A stretch of DNA of 6,386 bases from a virus (lineage: Duplodnaviria > Heunggongvirae > Uroviricota > Caudoviricetes). The notes under the pieces are model-generated. The model was not told the origin of the DNA. It did no database searches and was given only the letters and a program-made list of their open reading frames with translations. The position numbers and the translations under genes are program-made. Position 1 is the first letter of the stretch; each line of letters begins with the position of its first letter. Of the stretch, positions 1 through 6,386 are shown piece by piece. The DNA is taken from positions 1 to 6,386 of IMG/VR virus record IMGVR_UViG_2529293138_000005, one strand, 5' to 3'.

Positions 1-288
1 ATGAAACTTAAATATTCTGGCTTAACTGCCAGCGGCACCGCTCGGCCTGAAATCCGTAACGGCGATATTTACCGCGATAAATATGGCGGCATGGTAACGA
101 TTAAAGGCGTGGCAGAACGGCGCATCACCTACCGCCGTGAAGGTTACGAATATGATTGCGTGATGCCTGTTTATCAATTCCGGCGTGATTTCACGCTGGT
201 AGGCCAGCGTAAAGCCGTTAATCAGAAACGTGCAACAGGTTATATCCGCAAAATCCGTGAAATGCTGGTCGCAGGGGGTAAGAAATGA
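1..288 (+). CDS. Hypothetical small basic protein (95 aa); begins at the window edge, so may be 5'-truncated
   Basis: Uninterrupted ORF in the same orientation as the downstream operon. Its stop TGA (286-288) overlaps the next ATG (285-287) as ATGA, suggesting translational coupling. No recognisable family motif. Confidence 0.45.
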   Translation: MKLKYSGLTASGTARPEIRNGDIYRDKYGGMVTIKGVAERRITYRREGYEYDCVMPVYQFRRDFTLVGQRKAVNQKRATGYIRKIREMLVAGGKK

Positions 289-452
289 AACTGGCACCGA
301 ACGTAAAACGATTACCGAAAGATAAATACACCGATGCGATTATTTTTGCGGGTATTGATGCTCACTCATTCGCAGAGCATTACATCATTGCACAGGCCAA
401 AAAAGCAGGCGATCCAGTCCCTCCCGTTTATCTGGGGGCGTTAATCAGTTAA
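285..452 (+). CDS. Hypothetical small protein (55 aa), absent from the supplied ORF track
   Basis: ATG at 285 preceded by a strong Shine-Dalgarno-like GGGGGT at about 273-278. Hand translation gives MKLAPNVKRLPKDKYTDAIIFAGIDAHSFAEHYIIAQAKKAGDPVPPVYLGALIS with TAA at 450-452. Start overlaps the upstream stop. Confidence 0.4.
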   Translation: MKLAPNVKRLPKDKYTDAIIFAGIDAHSFAEHYIIAQAKKAGDPVPPVYLGALIS

Positions 453-502
453 GCGAACTGGATAACCTCCAGATTGTTGATGATGGGCGATACAGGGCGA
501 CG

Positions 503-1684
503 GTGATACGCGCCGGAAATATTGAAGAGCCGCAGCTGTTAACCATCGCCACGAAACTGGCGATCGCCGGAGTCCAGGAGGCGCGGCTACTTTCTGAAAA
601 TTTCGAATTGCTGGAGGAATGGAGCGACCAGCTTCCACGGCTTAGGGAGACATGGGAACGCGGGGAAAGCCTGAGCAACCAGCGAAAAACCACGCTACCA
701 ATGAGCGTGGGATCTGCCGGATACGACACACAACTTGATTACGTGGTTAAGGGAATTATTCCGGCTGTATCGCTTTGCAGCATATACGGGGCGAGCGGTT
801 CCTATAAATCATTCCTTGCCGGATCGTGGGCGTGTCACGTTTCCACTGGCCGCCAGTGGGGATGCCGCAGGGTGGCGCATGGCGCTGTTCTCTATGTGGT
901 TGGTGAAGGCGGTATCGGCGTTCCTCGTCGTGTAAAAGCCTGGGAGGTTGTGCACGGTGAGCAGGTGAAAAATCTGTATCTGGTAAACCGTCCCATCTTT
1001 CCGGCTGCCCCGCTTGATGTTGATGAAATGGTTATCGCTGCCCGTCAGGTGGAACGGGAAACGGGTAAACCTGTACGCATGATTATTCTGGATACGCTGG
1101 CGCGGTGCTTTGGTGGCAATGATGAAAATGATTCCCGTGATATGGGGGCGTTTATCCGTGGGTGTGACGAACTGAAACGACGCACAGGGGCCACGGTGCT
1201 GGTGGTTCACCATTCCGGCAAGGATGAAACAAAGGGAGCGCGTGGTTCCAGTGCATTTCGTGCTTCGCTGGATGCTGAATACCGGATACGCAGGGAGGAC
1301 GCAGGAAGCGAAGCCCTGGTTATCTCATGCACCAAAATGAAGGATGCGGAGGAACTCAAAGAAGCCGCATATGACTTACGCGTGGTGGAGCTTTTTACCG
1401 ACGCTGACGGGGAGTTAATCACGTCGCTGGTGGTGGTGGATAAGCCGCGCCCTCCCGTTGAACTGGAGCGCATCGAGGAGGCTGGCAACAAGACGGAAAA
1501 CCATACCGCGCTATGGGGATGCATACGTTCACGCACACAGAACGGCGACAAGTGCACGATCCCGCTGTTACGTGATGACATGAAAAAACTGGGGTACGAA
1601 ATGAAAAACTTCCGGCGCTGGCTGTACAAGCTGGAAAAAGACAGGGTTATTCGTATCGATGGGGATGATGTAGCGCCGCTATAA
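503..1684 (+). CDS. Replication protein, RepA-like RecA-family ATPase (AAA_25-type helicase/initiator) with a C-terminal extension
   Basis: Motifs read directly from the translation: P-loop-like GASGSYKS, Walker-B-like MIILDTLARCFGG, and HHSGKDETKGARGSSAFRASLDAEY, typical of RepA/AAA_25 proteins. GTG start at 503; an in-frame ATG at 701 is an alternative start. Followed immediately by an iteron-like block. Confidence 0.75.
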   Translation: MIRAGNIEEPQLLTIATKLAIAGVQEARLLSENFELLEEWSDQLPRLRETWERGESLSNQRKTTLPMSVGSAGYDTQLDYVVKGIIPAVSLCSIYGASGSYKSFLAGSWACHVSTGRQWGCRRVAHGAVLYVVGEGGIGVPRRVKAWEVVHGEQVKNLYLVNRPIFPAAPLDVDEMVIAARQVERETGKPVRMIILDTLARCFGGNDENDSRDMGAFIRGCDELKRRTGATVLVVHHSGKDETKGARGSSAFRASLDAEYRIRREDAGSEALVISCTKMKDAEELKEAAYDLRVVELFTDADGELITSLVVVDKPRPPVELERIEEAGNKTENHTALWGCIRSRTQNGDKCTIPLLRDDMKKLGYEMKNFRRWLYKLEKDRVIRIDGDDVAPL

Positions 1685-1860
1685 AGTGAGGTGCAAAAGC
1701 GAGGTGTATAGAAGGAGGGCCAAAATTAGACCGCTACCCCTCACTTTTCGGCCTGTATACATCCTCAAAAGTGAGGGGCAAAAAAATACTTATGAAACAC
1801 ACACATAGAAAAAGCGAAAATCTCAAGCGAGACGGAGCCAGACACTTTAAAAAGTGAGGC
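1682..1860. repeat. Iteron-like repeat block (four copies of an AAAGTGAGG-type motif, one inverted); candidate origin or operator region
   Basis: Motif copies at 1683-1693, 1737-1751 (inverted), 1767-1778 and 1850-1860. Copies 1737-1748 (CCCCTCACTTTT) and 1767-1778 (AAAAGTGAGGGG) form a perfect 12-bp inverted repeat around an 18-nt spacer containing GTATAC. Region is AT-rich and sits directly after the rep stop. Confidence 0.5.
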
Positions 1861-1883
1861 GAAAAACTGAGAGTTTGCGAGAA

Positions 1884-2135
1884 ATGAACAAAATGCGTAG
1901 AGACAGAACAGAGCCAAAATATAAAGCGTTAGACATGACAGAGCACGCTTTAAAGGTGGCAATCAGAACGATAGACCGCCACGCGGGGGAAGGATACGCG
2001 AAGGAACATCCCGACATGATAAGCGCATTCATGACCACAGCAGCGGCAAACTTTGCCACGCTGACAGAACGGGAGATTGCCGAAGCGGAACAGGTAACAA
2101 CCATCAACGTTAAAACCGGAGAGCAGACAGCATGA
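1884..2135 (+). CDS. Hypothetical protein (about 83 aa), translationally coupled to the ssb-like gene
   Basis: ATG at 1884 with GAGAG about 10 nt upstream. The track's GTG start at 1854 lies inside an iteron copy and is less likely. Stop TGA 2133-2135 overlaps the ssb ATG at 2132 (ATGA). Confidence 0.5.
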   Translation: MNKMRRDRTEPKYKALDMTEHALKVAIRTIDRHAGEGYAKEHPDMISAFMTTAAANFATLTEREIAEAEQVTTINVKTGEQTA

Positions 2136-2555
2136 CAGCACAGATAGCGGCTTACGGACGGCTGGTGGCTGACCCGCAGTTAAAGACCACCAGCAAGGGT
2201 ACACAGATGACGATGGCGAGTATGGCGGTCCCCCTTCCGTGCAGCCAGGCAGATGACGGAGCGGCGACGATGTGGTTATCCGTCATGGCGTTTGGCAGAC
2301 AGGCCGACGCACTGGCAAAACAACCACAAAGGCGAACTGGTGAGCGTGGCGGGTAACATGCAGGTAAGTCAGTGGACAGGCCAGAACGGCGAAACGCGGC
2401 AGGGCTGGCAGGTTATCGCAGACAGCGTAATCAGTGCGAGAACGGCGCGACCTGGCGGCAAAAAAGGCCAGCAGGGGCAGGCTACTGATGCACTGAACAG
2501 GGCAAAACAACAGGCGGGTAACGATGATCCGTACGGGGATAACATACCGTTTTAA
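2132..2555 (+). pseudogene. ssb: Single-stranded DNA-binding protein (SSB) gene split by a +1 frameshift near 2317-2324
   Basis: The N-terminal part (frame of 2132) reads AYGRLVADPQLKTTSKGTQMTMASMAV...WLSVMAFGRQADALAK, an SSB OB-fold pattern. The C-terminal part (frame of 2253) reads HKGELVSVAGNMQVSQWTGQNGETRQGWQVIADSVI and ends in the acidic tail DDPYGDNIPF (compare E. coli SSB ...DDDIPF). The two halves are in different frames; removing one A from the AAAA run at 2317-2320 restores a continuous reading ...ALANNHKGELV.... Confidence 0.65.
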
Positions 2556-2571
2556 GCAACGAGTAACAGAA

Positions 2572-2593
2572 GCCGGAGAAGTCCGGCTTTTTT
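2572..2593 (+). terminator. Rho-independent terminator closing the rep-ssb operon
   Basis: Stem GCCGGA, loop GAAG, stem TCCGGC, then TTTTTT; located 17 nt after the ssb stop. Confidence 0.7.
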
Positions 2594-2600
2594 ATGCCCC

Positions 2601-2628
2601 AAAAAAAGCCCGGAGGGTCTTATCGGGC
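2601..2628 (-). terminator. Possible minus-strand terminator; with the previous hairpin forms a bidirectional pair
   Basis: On the minus strand: stem AGCCCG, 11-nt loop, stem CGGGCT, then TTTTTTT (complement of the A-run 2601-2607). No convincing minus-strand gene upstream of it in the window. Confidence 0.3.
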
Positions 2629-2710
2629 TTTTGCATATGAGGTTTTTTTGGTGCGCTGACACACATGATCGGGATAATAATTTCATAATTTGCAACATAA
2701 CTCAATATTA

Positions 2711-2738
2711 TTGCACAAAATGCAATCCTGATTATAAT
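2711..2738 (+). promoter_or_regulatory. Near-consensus sigma70-type promoter with an overlapping dyad, upstream of the head operon
   Basis: -35 TTGCAC (2711-2716), 16-nt spacer, -10 TATAAT (2733-2738). The -35 lies inside the dyad TTGCA-N5-TGCAA (2711-2725), and the -10 lies inside the perfect palindrome GATTATAATC (2730-2739). Confidence 0.45.
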
Positions 2739-2796
2739 CATGACTGGATGAACAATCCAGTTATGATTTTTAAGTTCGAAGAGGAATTTCTTACTA

Positions 2797-3002
2797 TGGC
2801 TGAAGAGAAAAAAGGCGGTGTTTCGGTGTACATAAGCTCCGACATCGTGGAGGCGCTCAAGGAACGCCACCAGCAGAACGTAAAAGCAGGCATTGCGGCA
2901 GGACTTGATCCACTGGCGATGGTTGAGCCGTCAACAGGCTGGCAGGTGCGCGCCTATTTACGTGCGGCGCTGGGCATGAATCAGACTCATGGGGGTGAAT
3001 AA
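2797..3002 (+). CDS. Hypothetical small protein (68 aa) at the head of the capsid operon; possibly a ribbon-helix-helix-like or scaffold-like protein
   Basis: ATG at 2797 with AAGAGGAA upstream. Stop TAA (3000-3002) shares a base with the capsid ATG (3002-3004). The longer track ORF starting at 2631 would overlap the promoter region and is rejected. Confidence 0.5.
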
Positions 3003-4057
3003 TGGCAGGCAAAGCAACGGCACTTACCACTAATCAGCTTTTCACGTACATGAATCGCGGGGATATTGCGGAATTTAAATTCAGTCCGCTGTTTACCACG
3101 CTGTTTTTCACGAACGTGGCGACATTCAGCACCCAAAACATCATGCTGGATACCCTGGACATTGAAGAAGTCACTATGTCGGCGTTTTGTTCTCCTATGG
3201 TTGGCAGCCAGGTACAGCGCGATAAAGGGTACGAAACCAGCACAATCAAACCTGGCTACATGAAGCCAAAGCACGAAATCGATCCAACAAAGACCATCAT
3301 GCGCATGGCTGGAGAAGATCCGGCACAGCTTAACGACCCTACCTACCGCCGTATGCGCCTGATTACTGGCAACATGCGCCGCCAGATAAACGCCATTAAA
3401 GCGCGCGTGGAATGGCTGGCGGTGAATGCGATAACGACCGGAAAAAACATCATTGAGGGCGAAGGCATAGAACGCTATGAAATCGACTGGAAGATACCGG
3501 GAAAAAACATCATAGAGCAGGCCAAAGGCCGTAAATGGTCCGAGCAGGACAAAGAAACCCACGATCCAATCTATGATATCGAGCTTTATGCGGATCAAGC
3601 AGATTGCCCCGCCAACGTCATGATTATGGGCGCAGAGGTATGGCGCACGTTACGCAGCTTTAAAAAATTCCGTGAACTGTACGATCTTTCCCGTGGTTCA
3701 GAATCCGCCGCAGAACTGGCCTGTAAAAACCTGGGCGAAGTGGTGAGCTTTAAAGGCTATCTGGGCGATATTGCCCTTATCGTCTATTCCGGCAAATATA
3801 CTGACAGCGACGGCACCGAAAAATATTTCCTTGAGCCTGATTTGCTGGTCCTTGGCAACACCAACAATAAAGGGCTGGTGGCCTATGGTGCGATTATGGA
3901 TCAGGAAGCGGTAAGAACGGGCGCAACGCAAAACATGTACTACCCGAAAAACTGGATTGAGGACGGCGATCCGGCGATTGAGTACGTGCAGACACACAGC
4001 GCACCGCAGCCGGTTCCGGCAGATATTCGCAAATTTGTTACCGTCAAAATTGGTTAA
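3002..4057 (+). CDS. Major capsid protein, lambda gpE family (351 aa)
   Basis: Collinear similarity to lambda gpE as recalled: FKFSPLF versus KFKFDPLF, TIKPGYMKPKHEIDP versus FTPGYVKPKHEVNP, DPTYRRMRLI versus DPAYRRRRII, FKGYLGDIALIVYSG versus YKGMYGDVAIVVYSG, LVLGNT versus MVLGNT, YPKNWIEDGDPA versus YPKNWVTTGDPA. Strong SD (GGGGGTGA) before the ATG. Confidence 0.9.
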   Translation: MAGKATALTTNQLFTYMNRGDIAEFKFSPLFTTLFFTNVATFSTQNIMLDTLDIEEVTMSAFCSPMVGSQVQRDKGYETSTIKPGYMKPKHEIDPTKTIMRMAGEDPAQLNDPTYRRMRLITGNMRRQINAIKARVEWLAVNAITTGKNIIEGEGIERYEIDWKIPGKNIIEQAKGRKWSEQDKETHDPIYDIELYADQADCPANVMIMGAEVWRTLRSFKKFRELYDLSRGSESAAELACKNLGEVVSFKGYLGDIALIVYSGKYTDSDGTEKYFLEPDLLVLGNTNNKGLVAYGAIMDQEAVRTGATQNMYYPKNWIEDGDPAIEYVQTHSAPQPVPADIRKFVTVKIG

Positions 4058-4068
4058 CGGGGGATTCT

Positions 4069-4404
4069 ATGGACACTCCATACATTGAGTTATTTGCAGG
4101 CAGTCAGCAGGTATCCACGACACTGGTACATTTTGCCGCTGATGCTGGCGTTATTCAGGAATTTACCCCGCTGATGCTGGCGGACAATGGCGAGTTTAAG
4201 CCGTGGGATGGTCAGGAATCTGGCAAGGCTGTTTATCTGACTTCGTACCCAGTGGACACGTCAACGCAGAAATCAGCACAGTGTTACAAGACGGGGATAT
4301 TCAATATTGCCGCCGTTAACTGGCCTGAGAGCGTCGACACCGACGTGAAAAAATGCGCCGCCTTTGCGGGTTCTGGCGTATCCGTTCAGCCGCTGGCGCG
4401 ATAA
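4069..4404 (+). CDS. Head decoration protein, lambda gpD family (111 aa)
   Basis: Similarity to lambda gpD as recalled: TPLMLADNGEFKPWDG versus TPLMLDTSSRKLVAWDG, and YKTGIFNIAAVNWPESVDTDVKKCAAFAGSGVSV versus [44 protein letters not shown] upstream. Gene order E then D is the reverse of lambda (D then E). Confidence 0.85.
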   Translation: MDTPYIELFAGSQQVSTTLVHFAADAGVIQEFTPLMLADNGEFKPWDGQESGKAVYLTSYPVDTSTQKSAQCYKTGIFNIAAVNWPESVDTDVKKCAAFAGSGVSVQPLAR

Positions 4405-4478
4405 GCAGGGGGAACGATGGCAGAAACCCAGGCGATGACGGCGACATCGATCGCATACTGAAAACCATCTGAGACAAG

Positions 4479-4500
4479 GCCGGAGAAATCCGGCTTTTTT
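4479..4500 (+). terminator. Rho-independent terminator after the decoration gene, immediately upstream of cosQ
   Basis: Stem GCCGGA, loop GAAA, stem TCCGGC, then TTTTTT. Differs from the terminator at 2572-2593 by a single loop base. Confidence 0.7.
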
Positions 4501-4572
4501 GCGGGTCCTTTCCGGCGATCCGACAGGTTACGGGGCGGCGACCTCGCGCGTTTTCGCTATTTATGAGCCTTT
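4501..4572 (+). other. Lambda-type cos site 1 (cosQ-cosN), rightward orientation; cosN GGGCGGCGACCT at 4533-4544
   Basis: GCGGGTCCTTTCCGGCGATCCGACAGGTTACG, then GGGCGGCGACCT, then CGCGCGTTTTCGCTATTTATGAG. This is near-identical to the lambda right-end/left-end junction as recalled (...ACGGGTCCTTTCCGGTGATCCGACAGGTTACG | GGGCGGCGACCTCGCGGGTTTTCGCTATTTATGAAAA...). Confidence 0.8.
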
Positions 4573-4574
4573 TC

Positions 4575-4651
4575 AGGTTGGTGGTGGTGGTTTTGTTGTT
4601 CGCTGTATCTCTATGAATAAAAAGGGAAAGATAACCACAAAACACCAACCT
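4575..4651 (+). repeat. cosB-like region of cos 1: inverted repeats around an A-rich spacer, unlike lambda R sites
   Basis: AGGTTGGTGGTGGTGGTTTTGTTGTT (4575-4600) and AACCACAAAACACCAACCT (4633-4651). The 9-bp cores AGGTTGGTG (4575-4583) and CACCAACCT (4643-4651) are exact reverse complements. Lies between cosN and the terS start, where lambda carries its Nu1-binding sites. Confidence 0.4.
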
Positions 4652-4692
4652 GAAGCATTAACTAAGTGTGGGTATTGATGAAATCGCACCTG

Positions 4693-5220
4693 ATGAATAA
4701 AAAAACCATGGCGCAAAGCTGCCGTGTAAGTGCTACAGCGTTCGACAAGTGGGGAGTGACTCCCGTTGAACGTAAAGGCCGTGAGGCGTTTTATGATGTT
4801 GCCAGCGTGATAGACAATAGGGTTAACAATGCAATTAACCAGGTTACAAACGACAAAGGCGATATTGATGATGATGAACTTTTACGCGTAAGAATCAGAT
4901 TACTGACAGCACAGGCGGAGGCGCAGGAGCTTAAAAACGAGCGCGAACGCGGCGACGTGATTGATACAGGTTTTTGCCTGTACGCGCTTTCAAAGCTGGC
5001 GAGCCAGATTTCTTCAATCATGGACAGTTTGCCGCTTACCATGCAAAGGCGCTTCCCGCAGATTACTCCCGCTATGCTGGATGGGCTTAAAAGGGAAGTG
5101 GTTAAAGCCTGTAATGCCAGTGCCACAGTTGCCGACAACCTACCGAAGATACTGGCTGATTACCTGATGGAAACTACCGGAGACGTACCGGAGAAGTTGC
5201 TACAGAAGAAAGTCGAGTAA
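4693..5220 (+). CDS. Terminase small subunit, lambda Nu1-like
   Basis: C-terminal half collinear with lambda Nu1 as recalled: LTAQAEAQELKNERE versus LTRAQADAQELKNARD, GFCLYALSKLASQISSIMDSLPLTMQRRFPQ versus AFCTFVLSRIAGEIASILDGLPLSVQRRFPE. The N-terminal putative DNA-binding region (MNKKTMAQSCRVSATAFDKWGV) is divergent. Start ambiguous: GTG 4666, ATG 4678, ATG 4693 or ATG 4708; 4693 chosen because it aligns with the Nu1 N-terminus. No large terminase ORF follows. Confidence 0.85.
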   Translation: MNKKTMAQSCRVSATAFDKWGVTPVERKGREAFYDVASVIDNRVNNAINQVTNDKGDIDDDELLRVRIRLLTAQAEAQELKNERERGDVIDTGFCLYALSKLASQISSIMDSLPLTMQRRFPQITPAMLDGLKREVVKACNASATVADNLPKILADYLMETTGDVPEKLLQKKVE

Positions 5221-5246
5221 CAGACGCGCAATTATTGAACAAAACT

Positions 5247-5450
5247 GAGAAACGACATGAAAGCGTCATAAATCGCCATTTTAGATGATTACCGTGTCGT
5301 TTCTTTTTATTGTGTATCTATTTAAAAACAAATAGTTATGTTCGAGAATTACCGACATGCTTTTTCCAGAAAAATTTTCATAAACAGATAAAAACCGCGA
5401 GGTCGCCGCCCCGTAACGGGCCATAATTCCAGGAAGGACCCGACGACACC
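5247..5450 (-). other. Lambda-type cos site 2 in inverted orientation (cosN AGGTCGCCGCCC at 5400-5411, i.e. GGGCGGCGACCT on the minus strand), with lambda-like R-site inverted repeats
   Basis: Reverse complement of 5343-5411 reads GGGCGGCGACCTCGCGGTTTTTATCTGTTTATGAAAATTTTTCTGG..., resembling the lambda left end (GGGCGGCGACCTCGCGGGTTTTCGCTATTTATGAAAATTTTCCGG). GAAACGACA (5249-5257) and TGTCGTTTC (5295-5303) are exact inverted 9-mers resembling lambda R-site cores as recalled. The cosQ-like side (5412-5450) is only partly lambda-like. Confidence 0.7.
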
Positions 5451-5475
5451 AGACAATCAGAACATCGGGAACACA

Positions 5476-5760
5476 ATGACAGAAGCCGAACTACTGAAAG
5501 TAATCTGCCGTATTACCGGAATCAGCCAGACAGCAGGCAAACAGGAGGCCACGCAGCCGGACAGCGTGATAGCCGAAAATTACGCGCGTGTGGTGGCTGA
5601 GGTGATGCGCCGTGATGGTATTGAGCTTAACGGCGTGGATATGCGCGACATACGGATCAGAGTTCTGGAGTTGTTGTCATATCGTCGCCGCGTGGAGATG
5701 TATCGGGAGAGCGAGAAAAAGACTTACCAGTGGAAGAAACCGGAGCGGCTGCGTACGTAA
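5476..5760 (+). CDS. Hypothetical protein (94 aa) immediately beyond cos 2
   Basis: ATG at 5476 with GGGAA about 8 nt upstream. No recognisable motif. Arg/Glu-rich C-terminus. Confidence 0.4.
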   Translation: MTEAELLKVICRITGISQTAGKQEATQPDSVIAENYARVVAEVMRRDGIELNGVDMRDIRIRVLELLSYRRRVEMYRESEKKTYQWKKPERLRT

Positions 5761-5933
5761 TGCGTACGGACATCGAGACAAAGACGAACAGTATTCTGGT
5801 TCAGTGCAAAACAACGTTAAACGTGGTTTTGCGTCCAGAGTCATCGTAATGGTTTTATGCGTCCTGCGTTGCGCTGGTGGATTTGAGGGATATAGCTGGT
5901 AGTGGTAAATCCCTTTTGCGTGGCGGTGCGATG

Positions 5934-6021
5934 GCTGCATGGTGGAAATCACCACGAAGGGGAGGTGATAAACACTCCCCCTTTTCGTGTGGTGCATGGT
6001 CAAAATGACCACGGAGGGGAG
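5934..6021. repeat. Two copies of an approximately 30-nt direct repeat (period 57 bp) with embedded hairpins, in a non-coding region
   Basis: GCTGCATGGTGGAAATCACCACGAAGGGGAG (5934-5964) versus GGTGCATGGTCAAAATGACCACGGAGGGGAG (5991-6021). Embedded palindrome TGGTCA-AAA-TGACCA (5997-6011). Imperfect hairpin CACGAAGGGGAG...CTCCCCCTTTTCGTG (about 5953-5989). Hairpin GACTATC-TCAAA-GATAGTC (6026-6044). Confidence 0.4.
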
Positions 6022-6271
6022 AACCGACTATCTCAAAGATAGTCACCCCATACCAGGATCACGCTAATAACGCACAACAGAGTGACCCATAGCCACCCTG
6101 TTCAACCGTTCCGGCTGACTGGACAGCATCATCACCATGATGGTGACGCAGCCCACCAGCAACCATAACGATTTCCTTTACAGCTGATGTGCTTTTTTGC
6201 TGATAAGGCGTAACCAGTTGATTGTTCCAGAATCACCCATTGGGGGAGGCTGGGCGGCCTGCTGTGGGCTT

Positions 6272-6288
6272 TTCCACCATTGGTGGAA
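6272..6288. repeat. Perfect 17-bp palindrome TTCCACCA-T-TGGTGGAA
   Basis: Read directly from the sequence; 8-bp arms around a single central base, typical geometry for a dimeric DNA-binding protein site or a tight hairpin. Confidence 0.3.
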
Positions 6289-6386
6289 AGGTGCACATCT
6301 GGATCATCATTACGGTGATCAATGGTATGTAAAACCCACCAGCCTGATTGACATTTAACCGGAAAAAAGCCAGGTAGCCCCGTCAT

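Follow-up and report, generated by a model that had tools for sequence, protein, structure and literature searches.

Previous studies on phage-inducible chromosomal islands (PICIs) and Staphylococcus aureus pathogenicity islands (SaPIs) placed the replication origin directly 3' of the rep gene, where sets of iterons surround an AT-rich region (PMC6092414, PMC9371898). EcCICFT073 is an experimentally characterised PICI, and an origin of the iteron type is described for islands of its class in the stretch that directly follows the initiator gene. The rep-ori segment of EcCICFT073 allowed a thermosensitive plasmid to replicate; with a rep mutant no colonies were obtained, and deletion of ori left significantly fewer rep-ori plasmid colonies at the restrictive temperature (PMC6092414). 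The SaPI Rep is a self-loading helicase, the C-terminal winged helix of which recognises iterons immediately downstream of rep (PMC9371898). We report herein on a 6,386-nucleotide stretch of viral DNA (IMG/VR record IMGVR_UViG_2529293138_000005, positions 1 to 6,386; hereafter the window), which, judged from its sequence, is an EcCICFT073-like PICI of the Gram-negative type. Positions 1683-1882 of the window very probably constitute the replication origin of this island, the repeats therein being the iterons read by the RepA-family initiator encoded just upstream. Iteron origins of the PICI/SaPI type are a known kind of element; here the origin appears to be served by a RecA-fold initiator instead of a superfamily-3 initiator.

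The locus resembles EcCICFT073 in island family and gene order (the related E. coli island L001 and EcCICFT073 occupy the same phoQ site), in the presence of an iteron array in the slot between the initiator stop codon and orf83-ssb, and in the N-terminal domain of the initiator, about 125 residues long and 62% identical between the two (PMC6092414). It differs from EcCICFT073 in the remainder of the initiator, which is an AAA_25 RecA-fold helicase plus a predicted winged helix here and a D5_N/DUF5906/Pox_D5 primase-helicase there, in the iterons themselves (AAAGTGAGG versus GGTAGACA/GGTAGATA), and in the length of the intergenic region (200 versus 288 bp). With the SaPIs it shares an origin immediately downstream of rep, short iterons, a meltable segment inside the array, an initiator-helicase with a C-terminal winged helix (predicted here), and specificities that vary between islands (PMC9371898). 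Unlike the SaPI Reps, which are AAA+ superfamily-3 proteins, this initiator has a RecA fold (AAA_25, RepA/DnaB-like), and its array is composed of units of about 9 nucleotides, with co-directional flanking sets and one central inverted pair around a TGTATACA core. Three of the traits by which PICI and SaPI origins are recognised were found, namely a position 3' of rep, two iteron sets flanking meltable DNA, and a helicase with what is predicted to be a C-terminal winged helix. The parts of the locus, in which the origin elements are putative, are as follows.

285-1684, plus strand: rep, helicase-initiator of the RepA family (Pfam AAA_25, E 2e-42; phrog_2850 over its full length)
1490-1681, plus strand: C-terminal winged-helix domain of RepA, the predicted origin-binding domain (AlphaFold2, Foldseek, co-variation)
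1610-1639, plus strand: predicted recognition helix H3 of this domain, with the specificity-correlated Asn codon at 1607-1609
1683-1713, plus strand: left iteron set, with AAAGTGAGG at 1683-1691, AAAGCGAGG at 1696-1704 and a degenerate third site at 1706-1713
1737-1778: origin core, an inverted iteron pair, CCCCTCACTTTT (minus strand) and AAAAGTGAGGGG (plus strand), around CCTGTATACAT at 1752-1762
1779-1815: A-rich segment adjoining the inverted pair on the 3' side of its right arm; candidate unwinding region
1825-1843, plus strand: two middle half-sites, AAGCGAGAC at 1825-1833 and GGAGCCAGAC at 1834-1843, both eroded (relatives have ...GCGAGACGAAGTGAGAC)
1851-1882, plus strand: right iteron set, with AAAGTGAGG at 1851-1859, AAACTGAGA at 1864-1872 and TTGCGAGA at 1875-1882
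1884-2135, plus strand: orf83, 83 residues (phrog_1231)
2132-2555, plus strand: ssb, frameshifted near 2322

Exact matches to AAAGTGAGG occur at 1683-1691 (+), 1739-1747 (-), 1768-1776 (+) and 1851-1859 (+), so that every one of the four perfect copies in the window falls within 1683-1859. The chance expectation is 0.04, none of 200 shuffled sequences contained four copies, and a tolerance of one mismatch adds just AAAGCGAGG, which also lies inside the array interval. No copy is present in the window outside 1683-1882, and the full L001 island likewise has none beyond its origin. The arms CCCCTCACTTTT (1737-1748) and AAAAGTGAGGGG (1767-1778) form a perfect 12-nucleotide inverted repeat with an 18-nucleotide spacer, the sole perfect one of at least 12 nucleotides with a loop of up to 40 nucleotides in the window; at least one such repeat was seen in 5 of 500 dinucleotide shuffles. 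A preliminary description of this DNA had noted both the four motif copies just after rep and the inverted repeat, and both observations are borne out. Its count of four sites is accurate for perfect copies; relatives reveal more sites, several of which are eroded here. For example, the degenerate third site of the left set reads GGTGTATA where relatives have GGTGAGG, and AAACTGAGA corresponds to AAAGTGAGA in the O157 relative.

The array occupies the entire gap between the two genes. Its first AAAGTGAGG copy overlaps the rep stop codon (TAA, 1682-1684), and its right set stops one base short of the orf83 ATG at 1884. The three direct copies follow one another at intervals of 85 and 83 bp, and the flanking sets lie about 8 helical turns from the central pair on each side. 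Both flanking sets are in the plus orientation, and the central pair alone is inverted, with some relatives carrying two inverted copies, CTCACtttCTCAC. The meltable DNA (1780-1814) is located between the left and right sets. The same description had called the whole 200 bp AT-rich, which goes too far; AT-richness is modest, with a GC content of 0.41-0.49 in the array stretch versus 0.47-0.61 in its flanks. Duplex stability in the array region is lowest in the A-rich segment (1779-1815), where the 25-mer nearest-neighbour free energy is -27.5, against a window median of -34.4 and a 1% cut-off of -27.2, with a GC content of 0.41; 1780-1814 alone nears the least stable 1% of window DNA. A scan of 1600-1950 for the DnaA-box and IHF consensus found none convincing (one single-mismatch match only), Rfam gave no match for the array, and a tRNA scan yielded nothing relevant.

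To compare relatives, the interval from rep to the next gene was extracted from eight E. coli islands (70-92% identity), and a RepA alignment scan with one genome per species supplied 80 further loci from Xenorhabdus, Kosakonia, Kluyvera, Pantoea, Pectobacterium, Serratia, Morganella, Erwinia, Sodalis and others. The layout and the offsets from the stop codon are kept in the eight E. coli loci and in about 75 of the other Enterobacterales loci. The first repeat on the rep stop codon and the array immediately 3' of rep recur in all of the about 80 relatives, and the conservation of the repeats in related elements, on which the preliminary description had made its proposal depend, was thus found. 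Its suggestion of an origin beside rep is also supported by the comparison as a whole (PICI identity, layout in about 80 relatives, and the co-variation described below). In E. coli, the left set comprises two or three direct repeats starting from the stop codon, with spacings of 13 and about 10 bp; after a spacer comes the inverted pair around CCTGTATA(C/T)AT. An A-rich stretch and then a couple of half-sites separate this pair from the right set, in which two or three direct repeats run up to the next ATG. The commonest 6-mer downstream of the stop codon lies at offsets of about 7, 20, 30, 60 (minus strand), 92, 150, 176, 188 and 199 in nearly all 80 loci.

The repeat core is uniform inside each element and differs between elements, as expected of concerted change. 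It is GTGAGG in the window, L003 and L009, GTGAGT in L004 and L008, GTGGGG in L001, L005 and L007, and GTGGGC in L006; in the wider loci it is GTGAGGA, GTGGGGA, GTGGGGGA, GTGGGGGC or GTGCGGCA. Whatever the specificity group or genus, the inverted copies enclose a TGTATA(C/T)A-like core, and CCTGTATACAT and its TGTATATA/CATATATA-like equivalents (L003-L087) are conserved though the iterons differ. Because it is kept in every specificity group, this central core appears to be an element independent of the initiator allele, and it is a candidate melting or loading point. In L009 (E. coli WGI31CT), a second core unit occurs after the right set, at 2400-2440, with an inverted GTGAGG pair around GCGTATATATA; it looks like a duplication of the origin core. 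The segment from the end of rep through the origin to the start of orf83 was matched in 1059 of 5426 complete E. coli genomes, in 632 of them over most of its length.

The last 65 or so residues of RepA vary most within the motif '..K-x-F-x-R-W-L-x-K-L-E..', and the residue before Phe predicts base 4 of the repeat core:

Asn: A at base 4 in 34 of 35 loci; the 35th has GTGAGT, which fits at that position
His: G at base 4 in 11 of 13 loci; the 12th has GTGGGC, and the 13th is without clear repeats
Lys: G at base 4 in 28 of 29 loci; the 29th is without clear repeats
Ser (in VRKSF): C at base 4 in all 7 loci

Asn is thus paired with GTGAGG, His or Lys with GTGGGG, and Ser with GTGCGG, in counts to which near relatives from Xenorhabdus, Pectobacterium and Serratia contribute many loci. 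The Asn/His contrast is found in three protein backgrounds, E. coli 'GYEMK-F..Y', E. coli 'GYD-K-[ML]..A', and 'G[VI][ND][VT]K-F' in other genera. For example, over the final 45 residues L009 and L005 differ only in Asn versus His, and their repeats are GTGAGG and GTGGGG, respectively. Contacts of asparagine with adenine, and of histidine or lysine with guanine, are common preferences in protein-DNA recognition, with which the observed residue-base pairs would agree. In five Xenorhabdus loci (L014, L022, L032, L082 and L086), ATGAGGAA replaces GTGAGGA while the recognition helix is identical; in the same subgroup 'KLE' is followed by Asn instead of Gln/His, and the C-terminal tail differs. These differences may point to a further contact for specificity, one that reads core base 1.

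The rep product consists of the N-terminal domain, a RecA-like AAA_25 ATPase and, by prediction, a C-terminal winged helix. AlphaFold2 modelling of the last 100 residues, from a shallow alignment (21 close, mostly partial E. coli homologues of the 100-residue C-terminus; the first 36 residues are not modelled), gave a predicted local distance difference test score of about 90 for residues 37-100 and an H1-strand-H2-H3-beta hairpin topology. The top of the Foldseek ranking is made up entirely of winged-helix domains (IclR/PcaR, MCM, SelB, MarR and Crp/FNR), superposing over 62-71 columns with root-mean-square deviations of 2-3.5 Å and probabilities of 0.9-1.0, at non-significant E-values of 0.07-0.3; such weak E-values are expected for a domain so small. 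A profile search of PDB sequences with the C-terminal domain gave non-significant matches only, and the top relevant ones, Crp/FNR helix-turn-helix segments, are a hint only. The domain matched no family in Pfam or NCBIfam, and the whole rep product matched AAA_25 alone in Pfam. In the model, helix 3, ordinarily the recognition helix, has the co-varying residue (codon 1607-1609) as its N-cap.

These features suggest how the origin might work. The C-terminal winged helix of RepA would bind each repeat unit, with the N-cap residue of the recognition helix matching base 4 of GTG-N-GG (Asn to A, His or Lys to G, Ser to C). RepA bound head-to-head on the central pair, aided by the flanking sets, would distort and melt the DNA, at or near the TGTATACA core and/or in the adjoining A-rich 1780-1814. 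The RecA-fold helicase part might then load itself onto the opened strands, as the SaPI Rep is described to do, and host primase, SSB and polymerase would copy the excised island after helper-phage induction. We regard it as an evenly balanced proposition that the N-cap residue sets the base accepted at position 4 of the iteron core, Asn specifying A, His or Lys G, and Ser (with an Arg-Lys insertion) C. If so, the Enterobacterales satellites would possess natural, orthogonal and reprogrammable pairs of self-loading helicase and origin. The architecture of these pairs would then have evolved separately from the primase-type PICI initiators and from the superfamily-3 Reps of SaPIs, and motor, reader and origin would be swapped together as one cassette that follows a common N-terminal domain.

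Several points weigh against the assignment of 1683-1882 as an iteron origin read by RepA. Binding, melting and origin firing are, for this type of RepA, all inferred from sequence. The flanking sets are co-directional and only the central pair is inverted, unlike the SaPI scheme, and the AT-richness is modest. Independent co-variation events are few (about 3-6), and the predicted winged helix leans on a shallow-alignment model and on non-significant Foldseek E-values (0.07-0.3). Moreover, both rep and ssb contain frameshifts and mutations have altered several sites, so that in this copy the origin may not function.

The last point leads to the alternative that survives best, a real but lesser possibility, namely that the island is in decay and the array seen here is what remains of an origin no longer active; this is compatible with the identification of the array as an origin. 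Relative to L006, rep carries a net +2-nucleotide frameshift near 438-445 (CTGGGGGCGTTAATC versus CTGGGGCGTTATC), which leaves open reading frames at 285-452 and 503-1684, and ssb carries a +1-nucleotide insertion near 2322 (AAACAACC versus AAACATC in intact relatives). Two GTGAG cores that are intact in O157 EC4115 (L003), the closest well-annotated relative, are lost here, now reading GGAGCCAGAC (1834-1843) and AAACTGAGA (1864-1872), and L001 likewise holds a rep pseudogene. Set against such decay, four perfect copies persist, among them both members of the central pair and the leading copies of the left and right sets, and the variant sites AAAGCGAGG and TTGCGAGA are also present in an element with an intact rep. 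The frameshifts could be real decay or sequencing errors, one of them falling within a G5 run. The origin of this copy would need Rep in trans and may be weakened; a co-resident island of like specificity could provide the protein.

The preliminary description had offered a different role, in which the repeats are operators by which RepA or another regulator controls transcription or translation of orf83-ssb. The right set does finish one base ahead of the orf83 ATG, and in relatives the last half-site (GGTGGGGAG or GTGAGGAG) overlaps a Shine-Dalgarno-like sequence, so that bound RepA could affect expression of orf83. Exchanges of the initiator between islands bear on this question. Nucleotide homology between the window and EcCICFT073 covers 1-361 and 1932 onwards, to the exclusion of rep and the repeats, and two more E. 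coli islands share the orf83 start (ATGAC/ACAAAATGCG.AGAGACAGAACAGA), with homology restarting exactly at the ATG. The orf83-ssb module (1884-2555) is common to islands with other initiator types, in which the repeats are unrelated: GGTAGAGG (GGTAGAC/GGTAGAT/GGTAGAG) in the primase-type island and TAACCCGCA in the DUF927 type. Since the same orf83-ssb follows different initiators with unrelated repeats, the repeats belong to the initiator and not to the ssb operon. Furthermore, no sigma-70-like promoter was detected in 1685-1883, and some 10 sites over 200 bp, together with an inverted core and an unwinding segment, far exceed the needs of an operator. An operator function is therefore unsupported as the main role of the repeats, and we consider it very unlikely.

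That the inverted repeat acts as a nucleic-acid hairpin (an attenuator or terminator between rep and ssb, or a single-stranded priming signal) is the least likely of all. Its arms can fold (DNA free energy -12.1 kcal/mol, z -4.95) and change jointly between elements, which alone would resemble compensatory change, yet no T-run follows the stem, the terminator scan of the rep-orf83 intergenic region and Rfam were both empty, and direct copies at a distance of 50-110 bp, for which there is nothing to pair with, change likewise and track the protein residue. As these unpaired copies change in step with the arms, recognition by a protein and not base-pairing is indicated, and the hairpin potential is explained by two opposed protein sites.

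The RepA-helicase, D5/primase and DUF927 types of initiator have the N-terminal domain of about 125 residues in common (62-67% identity) and are unrelated beyond it, which suggests that the exchangeable unit comprises motor, DNA-reading domain and repeats. The shared domain is encoded at 285 to about 660 in the window, L003:725-1100, L002:2242-2616 and L091:100-474. It belongs to no Pfam family, has a partial match to a phage 'DNA primase' PHROG, and may have an origin-independent role such as recruiting a component of the host replisome. The orf83 product likewise matched no family in Pfam or NCBIfam. The last half-iteron (1875-1886) lies at the position of the orf83 ribosome-binding site, where relatives have GGTGGGGAG-ATG or GTGAGGAG-AT; RepA binding there could incidentally influence translation of orf83.

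Comparable designs are known among other replicons. The alpha protein of satellite P4 is a primase and superfamily-3 helicase whose C-terminal winged-helix domain binds the origin at repeated octamers, and P4 replication also needs a distant repeat cluster, crr. The present initiator is similar in that a helicase and a (predicted) C-terminal origin-reading winged helix are joined in one polypeptide of an E. coli phage satellite. A P4-type arrangement of ori plus crr was rejected, no second repeat cluster being present in the window or in the full L001 island. Iteron plasmids (pPS10/pSC101 RepA, R6K pi, RK2 TrfA) use Rep_3 initiators, which have two winged helices and are not helicases, and depend on host DnaA boxes and DnaB loading. 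Their resemblance to this locus lies in direct initiator sites beside an unwinding element, in reading by winged helices, and in the co-evolution of repeat and initiator specificities. An ordinary iteron plasmid origin was rejected as well, as there is no Rep_3 match and no convincing DnaA box or IHF site, and the initiator carries its own helicase. The RepA of RSF1010/IncQ has an ATPase core in the same Pfam family, AAA_25, and this shared core accounts for the NCBI name 'helicase RepA family protein', under which the rep genes of the relatives are annotated. In IncQ plasmids the iterons are bound by RepC, a protein distinct from the helicase RepA, which lacks a domain for origin binding; unlike this arrangement, the winged helix is predicted to be fused to the helicase here.

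A literature search on iterons of RepA-type PICIs returned nothing specific, though Figure 2a of PMC6092414 may show this origin type, and searches for the repeat sequences themselves returned unrelated primers only. No precedent was found, in the literature searched, for the residue-to-base correspondence, which is the only mildly new element. The finding leaves the understanding of satellite replication unchanged. It assigns a function to an unannotated intergenic region in roughly one fifth of complete E. coli genomes, and extends the rule that iterons lie right after rep in PICIs to a third, RecA-fold class of initiator. The conserved layout and the residue-to-base match may provide a means to predict which islands cross-activate each other's origins, and suggest a small set of orthogonal replicons for the engineering of PICI-based delivery vehicles.

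The remainder of the window agrees with a Gram-negative PICI, as indicated by its collinearity with L001 and EcCICFT073 and by copies of a lambda-like cos sequence. Islands of that kind span about 10-12 kb at an att site of their own and carry int, an alpA-type activator, genes that all run in one direction, a replication module, genes for phage interference and packaging, and the cos of the helper. Genes outside the rep-ssb segment are as follows.

1-288: DUF4222 protein
3002-4057: homologue of the lambda E-type capsid protein
4069-4404: homologue of the lambda D-type decoration protein
4678-5220: Nu1-type small terminase (terS)

Islands of about 11 kb that are some 90% identical to the window (best matches about 90-92%) occur in hundreds of complete E. 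coli genomes. In L001, the island sits between roxA and phoQ and contains int, helix-turn-helix and icd-like genes on its left side, followed by DUF4222, rep, ssb, the capsid E/D homologues and terS. In CFT073, EcCICFT073 adjoins phoQ and has the same gene order as the window. The window is collinear with both islands, the int/alpA end lying beyond it. Between the window and EcCICFT073, the capsid/decoration region is 94% identical, and the right end of the window matches the sequence adjoining EcCICFT073 at 95.6%.

Two lambda-like cos sequences, at 4502-4573 and 5371-5442, are inverted relative to each other, with 72-nucleotide arms that are 75% complementary, and flank the Nu1-type terS. EcCICFT073 has two cosN sites, cos1 and cos2, without a TerS homologue (PMC6092414). 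Here terS lies between both cos sites, and 4575-5364 of the window is without homology to EcCICFT073. The least stable DNA of the whole window (25-mer free energy about -24) is at 5300-5345, just upstream of the second cos, and a 19-nucleotide imperfect inverted repeat (5239-5257 and 5295-5313) is located beside it. Near the right end of the island, there is a 17-nucleotide imperfect inverted repeat at 5939-5955 and 6264-6280 (ATGGTGGAAATCACCAC and GTGGGCTTTTCCACCAT), and two copies of AAAT(C/G)ACCACG(A/G)AGGGGAG were read from the sequence at about 5945-5965 and 6003-6023. These right-end repeats (5939-6280) may be related to the end of the island or to its attachment site.

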